From positions 1-26,929 of the forward strand of contig JBGPLR010000001.1 in NCBI GenBank assembly GCA_041486545.1: a stretch of DNA of 26,929 nt, in the 5' to 3' direction. The position numbers and the translations under genes were made by a program. Positions 14,580 to 20,288 of the stretch are shown here, one piece after another; the first letter of the stretch is position 1; each line of letters begins with the position of its first letter. Under the pieces are notes generated by a model. The model searched no databases, was not told the origin of the DNA, and was given only the letters and a program-made list of their open reading frames with translations. The DNA comes from Terriglobia bacterium (GTDB lineage Bacteria > Acidobacteriota > Terriglobia > Terriglobales > Acidobacteriaceae).

Positions 14580-15194
14580 ATGAGCGAAAAGAAACAGGAC
14601 TTCGTGGTAAGTGACCGGCGCCGCTTTGGAGACGAAGGCGAAGTACGCCCCGATTCTCCGGCGGCGCGGGAAGAAGCAGAGGCTGAAGCTGCAGCCAAAG
14701 CCGCGGCGGCATCCGTCGCAACCGCAACGCCACCGGCGAGCGCGGCGCCCGACAGTGCGGCGGGTGAAGCGGGCGACGAACAGGCCATGCCGGAAGCGCC
14801 CAGTGTTGAAGAACAGCTCCAGCAAAATGAGGCCTACAAGGCGTCCGGCAGGAAACTGGATGACATCTTCGCGGCCAAGCTGGGTACGGAAGGCGGTTAT
14901 CCGGAGATGACTTTCGAAAAAGTGGTGGAATCGCTCTACATGAGCGCGCTCATCCAGATGGGCGCCGTGCGCTCAGAAGGCGAGCCGCCCAGCGTGGACA
15001 TTATCGGCGCGCGCCAGACCATAGATTCGCTCACCATTTTGCACGACAAAACCATAAACAATCTCACTGACCGCGAACTGACTCTGCTGCAGAACGTTCT
15101 ATTCGAACTGAGAATGGCATGGATTGAACTCACCAACGCCATCGCCAAACGGGCCGCCAACCCGCCGGCAGAACCGGCGCCTCCGCAGAAATGA
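14580..15194 (+). CDS. DUF1844-family protein with an Ala/Glu/Pro-rich N-terminal linker
   Basis: C-terminal ARQTIDSLTILHDKTINNLTDRELTLLQNVLFELRMAW resembles DUF1844. ATG 14580 follows GAGGGAG. Confidence 0.75.
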   Translation: MSEKKQDFVVSDRRRFGDEGEVRPDSPAAREEAEAEAAAKAAAASVATATPPASAAPDSAAGEAGDEQAMPEAPSVEEQLQQNEAYKASGRKLDDIFAAKLGTEGGYPEMTFEKVVESLYMSALIQMGAVRSEGEPPSVDIIGARQTIDSLTILHDKTINNLTDRELTLLQNVLFELRMAWIELTNAIAKRAANPPAEPAPPQK

Positions 15195-15964: not shown

Positions 15965-16941
15965 GGATCTTGCGGTCTCTGCACGAAGTCCCCGGCGATC
16001 TGGGCCCAACTGTGGTAACCGTAGGGAATTTTGACGGCGTCCACTGCGGCCACCGGCAGGTGCTGAAAGAAGTGGTGCGGCGCGCGAAGGAGTCCGGCAT
16101 CAGCGCTGTGGCCGTGACCTTTGATCCTCATCCTTTGCGCATCCTGCGGCCGGATATCGCGCCGCGGCTGCTCACCCCGCAAAGTATCAAGGAGTCACTG
16201 CTCGCACAAAGCGGGCTGGACGCGCTACTGGTCATCCCGTTCACTCGCGACTTTTCCATGGTTACGCCGCGCGAGTTTGCCGGCGATATCCTGGCCGGCA
16301 AGCTGCACGCCAGGGAAGTTCACGAAGGCGAGACCTTTCACTTTGGCCACAAAGCGCAGGGCAATACCGAGCGGCTTAAAGAATTTGGGCGGGAGCTTGG
16401 ATTTGCCGTCGTCAACTATCCGTTGCTGTTGCTGCGAGGCAGTCCCGTTTCCAGCAGCCATATCCGCGGGCTGATTGCCGCGGGAAAAGTCAGTCGCGCG
16501 CGGCGCTTGCTGGGCCGCGTGTTCAGCATCATCTCAACTCCTGGGCGCGGACGAGGCTACGGCCACAAATACACGGTTCCAACCATCAACCTCAGCCGCT
16601 ATGACGAGATCGTTCCCCAGAACGGTGTTTATCTCACGCAAACGCGAATCGGCGGGGAGACCTTCAACTCCGTTACTAACGTGGGCAACCGGCCGACGTT
16701 CGGCGCCGATTCCTTCGCCATCGAAACCCATCTGCTCAACTTCCATCCCGTGGATATCACGGCGCAAACTGAAGTCGAAGTATCTTTTCTGCGCTGGTTG
16801 CGGCCGGAGATCAAGTTCCCTTCCGTGGAAGCGTTAAAAGAACAGATTGGGAAAGACGTGAAGCGGGCGGAGCGATACCTTGCGCTACTACTGAAACCAG
16901 GAACCACAAAGGACACGAAGGAACACAAAGGTACTCCGTAG
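15961..16941 (+). CDS. ribF: Bifunctional riboflavin kinase / FAD synthetase
   Basis: VGNFDGVHCGH, TFDPHP, PVSSSHIR, PTINL, NVGNRPTF, IETHLL and LRPEIKF motifs. The last residues (TTKDTKEHKG) are repeat-derived. Confidence 0.94.
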   Translation: MRILRSLHEVPGDLGPTVVTVGNFDGVHCGHRQVLKEVVRRAKESGISAVAVTFDPHPLRILRPDIAPRLLTPQSIKESLLAQSGLDALLVIPFTRDFSMVTPREFAGDILAGKLHAREVHEGETFHFGHKAQGNTERLKEFGRELGFAVVNYPLLLLRGSPVSSSHIRGLIAAGKVSRARRLLGRVFSIISTPGRGRGYGHKYTVPTINLSRYDEIVPQNGVYLTQTRIGGETFNSVTNVGNRPTFGADSFAIETHLLNFHPVDITAQTEVEVSFLRWLRPEIKFPSVEALKEQIGKDVKRAERYLALLLKPGTTKDTKEHKGTP

Positions 16942-16984
16942 CAGTTCGAACACGCCTTTGTGAACCTTTGTGTCCTTTGTGGTT
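16902..16984. repeat. Palindrome with 30-nt arms built of 9-10-nt tandem units, spanning the ribF stop
   Basis: Left aaccacaaaggacacgaaggaacacaaagg (16902-16931). Right cctttgtgaacctttgtgtcctttgtggtt (16955-16984). 27/30 exact complementarity plus one G-U pair, with a 23-nt loop. Confidence 0.92.
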
Positions 16985-17011
16985 AAGTCTCCTGATAGAA
17001 TTCCCCCGCCC

Positions 17012-18280
17012 ATGGCCACCGCCACAGTCCCGTTCTCAGAAGTCACGTCCGCGCAGAAACGCACGCTGGTCGCAGCCGCGCTGGGCTGGGGGCTGGATGG
17101 ATTTGACGTTCTGCTCTACAGCAACGTCCAAGTCCACGTGATGCTGGCGCTGGGCATCCATGACAAAGCCACCGCCGGCTTGCCTAACGCATTCATGTTG
17201 CTGGCGTCCGGCATTGGCGGCGTGTTGTTCGGGTTCATCGCCGACCGCATCGGACGGACCAAGGCACTGATGCTGAGCATTCTTACTTACTCGGTCTGCT
17301 CGCTGGGTTCCGGGCTTTCCACTTCCCTTGGCGTGCTGATTTTCTTCCGCTTCGCGCTGGGCCTGGGGATGGGTGGCGAATGGAACACCGGCGCAACGCT
17401 GGTCGCCGAAACCTGGCCGGTGAACCTGCGCGCGAAGGCCATCGCTATCGTGCAAAGCGCGTGGGCCTGGGGACTGGCGTCCGCAGCGCTGGTTACGGGA
17501 CTATTCTTGCGGATTTTTCCCCAGGACCCTTCCAAACACGATTTCATGCACCAGACCTGGCGCCTGGTATTCCTGGTCGGCTTGCTTCCCGCGCTGGTCA
17601 CTTTGTGGATTCGCAAGAGTGTTCCCGAATCCGAGATGTGGAAGCAGCAGCGCGCCAAGCAAGAGGCTGCGCCATTCTCTGAGATCTTTTCTCCCGGCAT
17701 GCGCAAGAACACCATCGTCCTGCTGCTCTTGAACATCTTTGGACTGTTCGCCTGGTGGGGACTCTTCAGCTGGATGCCTCCCTACCTGACTTTGCCGGTG
17801 GACAAAGGCGGCCGCGGCTTCGGCCTGATGAACACCACCACGCTGCTGGTGACGCTGAACCTGCTCGGCATGTTTCCCGGCTATCTTTGCTATGGCTGGA
17901 TCGCCGACCGGCTGGGCCGCCGCCGATCATTGGTGCTGTTCACTTTATGCGCGGCGCTGCTCATCCCCGCTTACGCCGCGGCCCGGACCCAGTGGCTGAT
18001 TCTGGTGCTGGGAGTATTCGTAGGATTCTTTGGCACCGGGTTCTTTGCCGGATCGGGCATCGTGGGCAGTGAGATCTTCCCTACTCGCGTGCGTTCGCGC
18101 GCTTTGGGTTTCACATACAACGGCGCGCGCGCACTGAGTTGCGTTGCTCCCTACACGATTGGCCGCGTGGCCGACGCTCACGGTCTGAGCTGGGCCTTTA
18201 CCATTTGCGCCGTGGCTTTTCTCCTGGCAATGGTGATGGCAACGCAGCTGCCGGAGACAAGGGGAAAACAGCTTGAGTAG
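17012..18280 (+). CDS. Major facilitator superfamily transporter (substrate unknown)
   Basis: About 12 hydrophobic segments. Motif A twice (GFIADRIGRTKAL; GWIADRLGRRRSL), plus GMGGEWNTGATLVAETWP and EIFPTRVRS. Start set to ATG 17012 because the track GTG lies inside the palindrome arm. Confidence 0.92.
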   Translation: MATATVPFSEVTSAQKRTLVAAALGWGLDGFDVLLYSNVQVHVMLALGIHDKATAGLPNAFMLLASGIGGVLFGFIADRIGRTKALMLSILTYSVCSLGSGLSTSLGVLIFFRFALGLGMGGEWNTGATLVAETWPVNLRAKAIAIVQSAWAWGLASAALVTGLFLRIFPQDPSKHDFMHQTWRLVFLVGLLPALVTLWIRKSVPESEMWKQQRAKQEAAPFSEIFSPGMRKNTIVLLLLNIFGLFAWWGLFSWMPPYLTLPVDKGGRGFGLMNTTTLLVTLNLLGMFPGYLCYGWIADRLGRRRSLVLFTLCAALLIPAYAAARTQWLILVLGVFVGFFGTGFFAGSGIVGSEIFPTRVRSRALGFTYNGARALSCVAPYTIGRVADAHGLSWAFTICAVAFLLAMVMATQLPETRGKQLE

Positions 18281-18442
18281 CCGCAGATCTGCGCAGATGA
18301 ACGCAGACGGCAGAACAACCTAGCCGCGAATTTGCGCAAAATAAATACGAATCAATCTTGAACTTGTTCTGATTCGTTTCAATTCGCGTGGATTCGCGGC
18401 CATTGCGCTCTTGATTTGCGCGCATCTGTGTAATCAGCGGCC
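18279..18442. repeat. Two nested palindromes with ~9-nt tandem-unit arms filling the convergent MFS/typA gap
   Basis: Outer arms gccgcagat-ctgcgcagat-gaacgcaga (18280-18307) and tttgcgcgc-atctgtgta-atcagcggc (18415-18441). Inner arms gccgcgaat...acgaatca (18323-18354) and tgattcgt...attcgcggc (18370-18400). Confidence 0.85.
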
Positions 18443-20278
18443 TTACACCACAGCCGGCGCGTTCGTCGGCAACGCAGCATTCTTTTTCGGCCTTCGGTTG
18501 GCATGCAGGATCTTCTTTCGCAGCCGCAGGTTCTTGGGCGTGACTTCCACCAGCTCATCGTCGGCGACGAACTCAATGGCCTGCTCAAGCGTCAGATTTT
18601 TGAACGGAATCAAGCGGATCGCTTCGTCCGCGCTGGAAGAGCGCATGTTGGTCAGCTTCTTTTCGCGGACGGCATTTACGTCCAGGTCAACTTCGCGCGC
18701 GTTCTCGCCGACGATCATTCCTTCATACAACTCCACGCCCGGCCCGACAAACAGCACGCCTCGCTCCTGTAAACTCCACAAGGCATAGGCGGTGGAGTGC
18801 CCGCCGCGGTCGGACACCAGGGCCCCGGTCATGCGATGCGGGATTTCGCCCAGCCATTCGGTGTAACCGTCAAAGAGCGAATTCAAGATCACCGTGCCGC
18901 GGGTTTCCGTGAGCAGCTCTGAGCGCAGGCCAATCATGCCCCGGCTGGGGATGGTGAATTCCAGGCGCACGCGGCCGGAGCCGTGGTTGTGCATCTTGAG
19001 CATGTGGCCTTTGCGCGATCCCAGCTTTTCAATCACCACGCCGATGAACGCTTCCGGAATATCCACCATCAACTTTTCCTGCGGCTCCATGAGCTTGCCG
19101 TCAATCCGCTTGGTGACGATTTCCGGCTTGCCTACGGCCAGCTCAAAACCTTCCCGGCGCATGGTCTCAATCAGAATAGCGAGCTGCAGTTCGCCCCGGC
19201 CCAAGACCTTGAAAGAATCCGTGTTGTCAGCCTCTTCCACGCGCAGGGAAACGTTGGTGAGCAGCTCTTTCTCCAGGCGGTCGCGCAAATTGCGCGAAGT
19301 CACGTAGGTGCCGTCGCGTCCGGAAAAGGGCGACGTATTCACGGAAAACTGTATGGCGATGGTCGGCTCGTCTATGGCGATGTGCGGAAGCGGCGCCGGG
19401 TTCTCTACATTGGTGATGGTTTCGCCGATGTTGATGCCTTCCACTCCGGCAATGGCCACAATGTCGCCGACTTCGGCTTTCTCAATGTCCACACGCTTGA
19501 GCCCGCTAAAGGAAAACAATTTGGTGATCTTTACTTTTTCGAACGCGCCGCCCAGTTTGGCGATGGCCACTTCTTCTCCGGCATGCAGCGTGCCGTTGAA
19601 CACGCGGGCAATGGCCATGCGGCCGAGATAGTCGCTGTAGTCCAGGTTGGCGACGAGAATCTGCAACGCGTTGGCGGCGTCGCCAGCGGGCGGCGGAATC
19701 GTTGTTAGAATGGCGTCAAACAACGGGCGCAAGTTTTCCCCGGCAACATTCATATCGGCCGACGCGGTACCGGCCTTGGCGTTGGTATAGAGCACAGGGA
19801 AATCGAGCTGGTCTTCCTTGGCGTCCAGATCAATGAACAGGTCGTAAATTTCGTTCAGGACTTCCTGGGAGCGCGCGTCCGGGCGGTCAATCTTGTTGAT
19901 CACCACCACCGGAGGCAGTCCGGCTTCCAGCGCTTTGCTCAGCACGTAACGCGTTTGCGGCAACGGGCCTTCGCTGGCATCCACCAGCAACATAACGCCG
20001 TCCACCATTTTCAGCGCGCGTTCCACTTCCCCGCCAAAGTCGCTGTGGCCCGGCGTGTCCACAATATTGATCTTCACGTCGTGAAAAAGAATGGCGGTGT
20101 TCTTGGCCAGGATGGTGATGCCGCGCTCCCGCTCCAGAGCATTGGAATCCATCACGCGATCCACCACGGCCTCATTGGCGCGAAACGCGCCGCTTTGGCG
20201 AAGCATGGCGTCTACCAGCGTGGTCTTGCCGTGATCAACGTGCGCGATAATGGCGATATTGCGAATTGCTGAATTCAA
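18443..20278 (-). CDS. typA: Translational GTPase TypA/BipA
   Basis: [22 protein letters not shown] and NKID G-motifs, and C-terminal [19 protein letters not shown] 20278 lies 10 nt from AGGAG; the track TTG 20287 is only 1 nt from it. Confidence 0.97.
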
Positions 20279-20288
20279 CTTGGACAAG

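Follow-up and report, generated by a model that had tools for sequence, protein, structure and literature searches.

The 162-nt gap between two convergent genes of a Terriglobia bacterium, encoding a major facilitator superfamily (MFS) transporter and the GTPase TypA/BipA, is filled by two palindromes, one lying in the loop of the other. Our preferred interpretation, to which we assign a probability of about 0.7, is that both are inserted elements of a single class, nested and without a gene, the full-length members of which carry a gene for a GxxExxY nuclease. The window we analysed is the whole 26,929-nt stretch of contig JBGPLR010000001.1 (assembly GCA_041486545.1), and coordinates given without a contig name refer to it. 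The gap and the genes on either side are laid out as follows:

16970..18280, plus strand: open reading frame (ORF) of the MFS transporter gene (Pfam MFS_1, E = 1e-42)
18278-18280, plus strand: stop codon TAG of the MFS ORF, the G of which is the first base of the GCCGC end of the outer element
18280..18308, no strand: outer element, left arm, with GCCGC end and three cores (CGCAGAT/CGCAGAC)
18323..18354, no strand: inner element, left arm, with GCCGC end and cores CGCGAAT (18325), CGCAAAA (18335) and TACGAAT (18346)
18355..18369, no strand: inner element, loop of 15 nt without an ORF
18370..18400, no strand: inner element, right arm, with cores ATTCGTT, ATTCGCG and ATTCGCG and GCGGC end
18415..18441, no strand: outer element, right arm, with cores ATTTGCG, ATCTGTG and ATCAGCG and GCGGC end
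18443-18445, minus strand: stop codon TAA of the typA ORF, reading TTA on the forward strand
18443..20287, minus strand: ORF of the typA/bipA GTPase gene (Pfam GTP_EFTU and BipA_C), convergent with the MFS gene

The outer palindrome (18280-18441) is built from CGCWGAT words, three per arm, and the inner one (18323-18400) from CRCGAAT words. The cores of the outer left arm start at 18282, 18292 and 18302, in a 10-nt phase, and the arm reads GCCGCAGAT ctg CGCAGAT gaa CGCAGAC; the reverse complement of the right arm is GCCGCTGAT ta CACAGAT g CGCAAAT, and its GCGGC end stops 1 nt short of the typA stop codon. The inner left arm begins TAGCCGC and reads GCCGCGAAT ttg CGCAAAA taaa TACGAAT, with a right arm that is GCCGCGAAT cca CGCGAAT tgaa ACGAAT when reverse-complemented. 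Each element thus has 3+3 cores at 10-nt spacing, and all four ends are GCCGC/GCGGC, conforming to the RCCRC...GYGGY pattern of the class A defined below. The arms of the gap palindromes are imperfect because the spacers are unpaired; an inverted-repeat search found 23-nt inner arms that are 74% complementary. Folded as RNA, the gap has a free energy of -73.2 kcal/mol (z = -5.7), and none of 200 shuffled sequences was as stable. An Rfam scan of the window returned no match. A first-pass annotation of this DNA had described nested palindromes with shared ends that exactly fill a convergent stop-to-stop gap, and the sequence, the folding and the shuffles bear this out; its 9-mer units proved to be a 7-nt core plus a 3-nt spacer, with an actual period of 10 nt. 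The TAG that precedes GCCGC in both elements is an extended end, (A)GCCGC with a preceding T, and no captured stop codon; AGCCGC...GCGGCT ends recur in many gene-bearing copies. No gene lies between the arms at the gap, neither in the 15-nt inner loop nor in the 106-nt outer loop (18309-18414), which makes both elements gene-less copies. Relatives with the same words that do bear a gene are found on contigs C575 and C64 of this genome (G000) and at locus L068 of the congener G024.

The genome is a metagenome-assembled genome of 3.58 Mb in 580 contigs, with 76% completeness. Scanning it for ten word types, we found 239 arrays of at least three phased cores, compared with one in a reversed-sequence control, and 68 strict inverted arm pairs, compared with none; the arrays are not a product of chance. 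We grouped the words into two classes, which are our own and not taken from a paper. Class A comprises CRC-type words repeated at 8-10 nt (CRCGAAT, CRCWGAT, CRCRRAGG and CRCGGAGR, plus a variant with a TTTGAAAC end), and class B mostly heptamers (AGCAATT, AGTACTT, TCAGCAG), plus GGTAATTx, GATCGGGT and ATTGCCAAAA. All three elements noticed initially, the outer, the inner and another at 16902-16984, belong to class A. The notion that such elements share an end motif while their internal words differ holds genome-wide, in the form of an RC before the outermost core (RCCRC): it is present in 28/28 CRCGAAT, 38/45 CRCWGAT and 78/95 CRCRRAGG arrays. Internal cores follow AA, GA or GG, and a C directly before them is very rare (2 GC in ~250 internal cores).

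The link to a gene comes from those copies in which the arms enclose one. In this genome, all three GxxExxY genes lie between class-A arms, and all five genes for four-helix-bundle proteins (TIGR02436, 23S intervening-sequence protein) lie between class-B arms. One of the GxxExxY genes, on contig C575, is truncated to 63 of 116 residues between intact GCCGCGAAT arms, the family of the inner element; at locus L068 of G024, a GxxExxY gene sits between GCCGCAGATGAGCGCAGAT...ATCTGCGGC, which have the word and the ends of the outer element. Across 25 congeners, every GxxExxY locus with both flanks and a non-fragment gene is in class-A arms (~75/80), 28 of 29 four-helix-bundle loci are in class-B arms, and there is no crossover between the two. 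Given that the congeners are kin and hence not independent, we widened the sample to Acidobacteriota, Planctomycetota, Dormibacterota, Binatota and Bacteroidota, with 80 loci that all belong to the same GxxExxY subfamily. Clear arms made of CGCGGAT, CGCAGAT, CACGGAT, CACTGAT or CGCGAAT flank 62 of them, with a core spacing of 10 nt in 75/90 cases and RC before the first core in 53/62. Clear arms are present at 51 of 75 four-helix-bundle loci taken from metagenomes; 48 of these 51 have a period of 7, and none is class-A-like. The association with GxxExxY genes, which the first-pass annotation had suggested, thus holds in this genome, in its congeners and across phyla.

The correspondence extends to individual words. 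The tree of GxxExxY proteins in the genus follows the word, requiring 7 label changes compared with 17.9 when labels are shuffled, and the proteins of the 10-nt CRCNGAT/CRCGAAT group are only ~30% identical to those of the CRCRRAGG group. The class of a word depends on the cargo gene, and its type on the GxxExxY subfamily, across phyla. Locus L251 (Runella aurantiaca, NZ_QPIW01000008.1) has ATCCGTG to the left and CACGGAT to the right of its GxxExxY gene, an arm orientation opposite to that of all other loci seen.

GxxExxY, a protein of ~115 residues, is by its motif a predicted PD-(D/E)XK nuclease. Residues G19, E22, Y25, D61, E71 and K73 are invariant in 52 sequences, leaving the D...ExK motif intact. 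A sequence search against the PDB gave no match, so the protein is without a solved sequence relative. The AlphaFold model has a pLDDT (predicted local distance difference test) score of 96, and its best PDB matches in a fold search were weak (E >= 0.018) and were minimal PD-(D/E)XK nucleases, with the archaeal Holliday-junction resolvase Hjc first.

To follow the history of the locus, we compared the orthologous MFS-typA gap in 15 congeners (Candidatus Angelobacter). It measures between 6 and 1144 nt and differs in content without relation, and the states are as follows:

G013: 6 nt, empty
G001 and G009: 40 and 65 nt, degenerate
G023: 74 nt, outer palindrome alone
G008: 92 nt, nested and decayed
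G012, G016 and G019: same outer-left and inner-left arms, with half of an unrelated repeat in place of the right side
G020 and G006: same left arms and a small lipoprotein-like ORF
G010: MFS frame extending 18 codons into the arm
G021, G011, G005 and G017: other content, with unrelated repeats in G021 and G011

The outer left arm has orthologous arms in G016, G012, G019 and G020, and the combination of outer-left and inner-left arms is common to G000, G016, G012, G019, G020, G008 and G006. In a typA tree, all nested states fall in one clade of nine genomes (support 100/98), in which G000 is sister to the others, and both G023 (outer only) and G013 (empty) lie outside it. By parsimony, this series implies a tiny gap that received the outer element, then the inner element in the loop of the outer, followed by vertical descent with erosion. 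The outer-only state of G023 may instead represent a precise loss of the inner element, the deep branches of the typA tree being poorly resolved. Either way, an empty site of the kind to be looked for in relatives does exist, and an outer-only state with it, at this very gap. Between orthologous copies, the cores are kept while the spacers and the number of units change.

Could the palindromes be terminators? If they were bidirectional terminators, or stabilisers of mRNA 3' ends, selected by the host for the convergent MFS and typA genes, their position exactly between two stop codons and their very stable fold would be accounted for. The family adjoins gene 3' ends genome-wide: elements near stops lie at a median distance of 4 nt, with 53 of 85 sides within 12 nt, and 17 of 63 elements occupy convergent gaps (baseline 16%, an enrichment), compared with 5 of 63 in divergent gaps (baseline 16%, a depletion). 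About half of the class-A ends have an A-run or a T-run outside the stem, which would suit terminators, and similar heptamer arrays at most 50 bp from stop codons have been reported to be mostly transcribed (Rehm et al. 2015, PMC4692102). However, there is no T-tract after either long stem, terminator-like sites in the region are no more frequent than in shuffled sequences, and there is no compensatory pairing of the arms beyond the family word. The gap is 6 nt long in G013, decayed in G001, G009 and G008 and occupied by unrelated repeats in G021 and G011, which is not the conservation expected of a 3'-end element. A terminator role also leaves unexplained why the same arms bracket nuclease genes across phyla. 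A look for transcript data turned up no RNA runs that contain the locus. We consider this explanation quite unlikely. Since the gap is empty, decayed or refilled in congeners, the hairpin is dispensable, and the elements in the gap are insertions, not required terminators.

The proximity to stops does not amount to targeting either, as the first-pass annotation had proposed. The stop codons beside elements are unbiased in type (TAA/TAG/TGA, 26/22/18, compared with 840/830/919 overall), and an ancestral gap of only ~6 nt means that any insertion would abut both stops, which explains the exact fill. Gene calls were made with a crude, purpose-made ORF scorer, and distances to start codons are therefore unreliable. 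Insertion into the family's own loops, another part of that proposal, finds no better support: element density in loops is 1.8-fold that elsewhere (0.65/kb compared with 0.36/kb), with p = 0.23.

As a further question, we asked what is conserved in the arms. If pairing were under selection, the two arms of one element should resemble each other more than arms of different elements, yet spacer identity is 0.47 within elements and 0.50 between them, and within narrow families the whole-arm identity of an arm to its own partner is no higher than to the partners belonging to other copies. We found no arm-to-arm covariation, in spacers or whole arms, beyond the family consensus. Since the arms do not co-evolve pairwise while cores and phase are kept, what is conserved is the word with its phase rather than the pairing. 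Words one helical turn apart favour arrays of protein-binding sites over a selected RNA or DNA hairpin. This raises the question of whose protein would bind. The phased cores with free spacers, and the fact that orthologous copies keep the cores but not the spacers, would also be expected of sites that are bound by a nucleoid, replication or regulatory protein of the host and kept for a host function, with the small genes as passengers. Such sites should not be dispensable and turn over at orthologous positions, as these are, and cargo type would not predict word class nor protein subfamily the word; these two dependences implicate the cargo protein, not a common host factor. We therefore regard binding sites for a host protein as very improbable.

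How gene-less copies arise bears on a third alternative, namely that they are immobile by themselves, each being the remnant of a full cassette, the sole inserting form, after deletion of its cargo. The truncated gene on C575 between intact arms could be an intermediate of this kind, many GxxExxY matches in congeners are fragments or contain stops, and some loops of 200-500 nt have no convincing ORF. The numbers are difficult to reconcile with this idea. There are ~170 class-A arms in this genome (28 + 45 + 97 arrays of at least two phased cores) and three GxxExxY genes, and the loops between strict arm pairs are mostly 20-130 nt long, without a gene remnant. In loops of 350-1200 nt, a search for other cargo gave either no convincing ORF or genes of ordinary kinds (a methyltransferase, a flavoprotein) with a distinct element on each side. 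In the congener G002, moreover, ~15-20 copies of one gene-less nested composite, an arm of CGCAGAGG words followed by a GCCGCGAAT element and further CGCAGAGG words, occur at unrelated sites with ~90% identity over ~250 nt. This 'doll' has multiplied as one unit in a recent spread, which needs copying of the gene-less form, and its outer word is the word of G002's own GxxExxY gene (L105). Deletion of cargo as the only source of gene-less copies is thus unlikely. The composite (L152-L171) starts with TTAACCRCAG, followed by a small hairpin (GTGGCGAGCCAC) and a second TTAACCGCAG; this start looks like a further small insertion, complete with duplicated target, in the end of the arm.

The interpretation as inserted elements can be formulated as follows. 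An arm consists of a 7-8-bp word repeated 2-4 times, ~10 bp or one helical turn apart, with a distinct RCCRC end on the outermost word, and two such arrays, inverted, make an element; full-length members of the same word families have the ~115-residue GxxExxY gene between the arms. The words may be binding sites for the nuclease of the cassette or for a partner protein, and the RCCRC end may mark the site at which the element is processed. Gene-less copies would spread in trans, or remain after loss of the gene; once fixed, they would be inherited vertically and erode, having no required host function at this locus.

Several observations weigh against this interpretation, the A- and T-runs already mentioned among them. 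Within the species, the locus is invariant inside the gap in contigs of four sediment metagenomes, and there is thus no sign of current mobility at this locus. We found no target-site duplication, and the flanking dinucleotides (TA was considered) are inconsistent across loci. The association of gene and word within the genus could reflect simple linkage in one inherited unit, and binding or cutting of the words by GxxExxY is a prediction. Finally, array counts follow the cognate gene only loosely, as a trend, and a strict cognate-gene rule is not upheld. A genome bearing the matching gene has 168 CRCGGAT arrays, compared with 42, 39, 17 and 0 in genomes without it, and CRCGAAT arrays number 55 with the gene and 40, 30, 15 and 12 without; for CACRAAGG arrays the count is 32 with the gene and 50, 38, 34 and 1 without. 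Arrays therefore persist, or spread, in the absence of a strictly cognate gene. What stands of the mobile, non-autonomous family proposed in the first-pass annotation is its conserved ends, its gene-less majority and its presence/absence polymorphism; targeting of stops and of its own loops is not supported, and neither is the mobiliser that had been suggested, of the HUH type of REP-associated tyrosine transposases (RAYTs; REP, repetitive extragenic palindrome).

We reject a link to RAYTs, since the Y1-transposase genes have a repeat of their own: the six PF01797 matches in the genome are flanked by GGTAGCCCAGGCC...GGCCTGGGCTACC, GC-rich REP-like hairpins that differ from the tandem-word arms, and the gap repeats are thus not those of a RAYT and its REP doublets (REPINs). 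Four of the RAYT-like genes are at C86:4244-4579, C79:6299-6631, C65:7733-8065 and C305:72-380 of G000, with tandem REP-like hairpins in C79, and it looks like a conventional REP-RAYT system exists in parallel in the same genome.

A wider proposal is possible, and we put it forward only tentatively: GxxExxY and four-helix-bundle proteins may each confer specificity on a separate lineage of mobile palindromic cassettes, every protein subfamily recognising its own short word (7-bp cores in 10-bp phase with an RCCRC end in one case, heptamers in the other), and the thousands of gene-less palindromes in many phyla may be the non-autonomous progeny. If true, such cassettes would constitute a novel kind of prokaryotic mobile element, with a PD-(D/E)XK nuclease of ~115 residues as its driver.

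The window contains one more class-A palindrome, upstream of the MFS gene:

16902..16984, no strand: third class-A palindrome, CACRAAGG words with AACCAC...GTGGTT ends, between ribF and the MFS gene

Its 30-nt arms are 90% complementary, and as RNA it folds with -52.4 kcal/mol (z = -8.4). The ribF frame crosses the left arm and stops in the loop (ORF end 16941), so that the repeat encodes the last ~10 residues of RibF. Class-B arms meet reading frames in another way. Their words contain TAG, TAA or TGA, which at a period of 7-8 nt places a stop in every frame within three units, and several ORFs beside class-B arms extend into the arm and terminate within the first or the second of its words (G000 C21:9103, C292:2197, C34:6978, C153:6927, C361:1192 and C40:5618).

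Other repeats were seen along the way. A family resembling MITEs (miniature inverted-repeat transposable elements) has inverted ends of ~25 nt (TCCCGAGCGGAGCGAGGGATCCCTAT...) and a variable interior that sometimes encloses a CRCGAAT element; copies are at G000 C102:3200-3372, C103:845-977, C116:7299-7482, C158:3147-3271 and elsewhere. It is also present in the MFS-typA gap of G021, G016, G012 and G019, and in several congeners it takes the place of the nested palindromes' right half. The 1144-nt gap of G017 (L012) contains an insertion of ~1 kb with an ORF of 228 residues, followed by a second MFS C-terminal coding end (...ATQLPERQRKQLE*), which suggests target duplication upon insertion of another element. 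In G020 (L010) and G006 (L026), the left arms and typA have between them an ORF of 127-140 residues that shows a lipoprotein-type signal (LLSGC / VVSC) and is common to both genomes in conserved form; the right arms are absent there. Another repeat, 110-170 nt in length, shows a long stem that is conserved (GCGAGTAGGCCCGAGGGACCTTGTG...CGCAAGGTCCCTCGCTCCTATTCGGACGCTGA) and has at least 15 copies, located outside the Rfam-scanned window (G000 C19:5639-5753 and 14786-14900, C44:5083-5176, C86:520-692, C144:276-435, C548:623-791 and others).

Gene-less copies of the elements litter the gaps behind genes and far outnumber gene-bearing ones; such elements are probably neither terminators nor regulators of the genes beside them, but they break assemblies and can extend reading frames, as in ribF. 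GxxExxY (PDDEXK_3) and the 23S intervening-sequence four-helix-bundle proteins are two very large families, and this locus and its relatives give both a concrete and testable context. The locus itself offers a dated series of states (empty, outer only, nested, decayed) together with a conserved end motif and a 10-bp phasing rule.

Among known systems, REP/REPIN-RAYT is similar in several respects: abundant, intergenic palindromic repeats that are mostly gene-less, of which a few copies bracket a small, single-domain gene of nuclease type; a repeat family paired with a gene; and a preference for gaps behind genes. It differs in its enzyme, TnpA-REP of the HUH Y1 type as opposed to PD-(D/E)XK, and in its repeat, a REP being one GC-rich hairpin with a GTAG or CGTC head, whereas the arms described here are tandem arrays of 7-8-nt words with a special terminal unit. 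Inverted ends made of several short protein-binding words, with optional internal cargo, are found in the foldback (FB) transposons of Drosophila and in the subterminal repeat arrays of Ac/Ds, En/Spm and the ends of Tn7 and Mu; these are eukaryotic or DDE-transposase systems without homology to the gap elements, for which we identified no transposase, a DDE-type parent not having been sought. Compared with MITEs, inverted ends are present and the flanking dinucleotides are not consistently duplicated.

The intervening sequences (IVS) in the 23S rRNA of Coxiella and Leptospira also have a long stem formed by the element ends, a small S23p ORF in the loop and, in the 5' part, tandem heptamers of strain-variable number, and are regarded as selfish and horizontally spread; the Coxiella IVS has 2-3 tandem GACAGAT heptamers and a four-helix-bundle ORF (Warrier et al. 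2016, PMC4990558). They reside in rRNA, are excised by RNase III and carry four-helix-bundle cargo, whereas the gap elements are gene-less, belong to the GxxExxY-linked class and sit between protein genes, not in helix 25 or 45 of 23S rRNA. Genes annotated 23S_rRNA_IVP have been seen wedged in cas operons (PMC3936711). The GGGAATC/GGGGAYT arrays of Xanthomonas and Nostoc (PMC4692102) share with our elements short tandem words of ~4 units, inverted pairs (70-75 per Xanthomonas genome), over-representation at most 50 bp from stops, scarcity between divergent genes and species-variable repeat number. They were reported without a link to mobile elements or a cargo gene and interpreted as G-quadruplex formers, including the inverted GGGAATC pairs near stops in Xanthomonas; the words described here are not G-tracts. 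A survey of PD-(D/E)XK proteins lists the function of PDDEXK_3 as 'Unknown' (PMC3424549), and the literature retrieved under GxxExxY and the family accessions holds no description of the cassette family as a whole. The MFS-typA locus is an ordinary, old member of an extraordinary, widespread and hardly described family. What it and its relatives add to these systems is a state series at one site, the rule of the RCCRC end, the finding that arms do not co-evolve in pairs and a cargo-dependent split of word classes (10-nt phase with GxxExxY, heptamers with four-helix-bundle proteins) that is valid across phyla.

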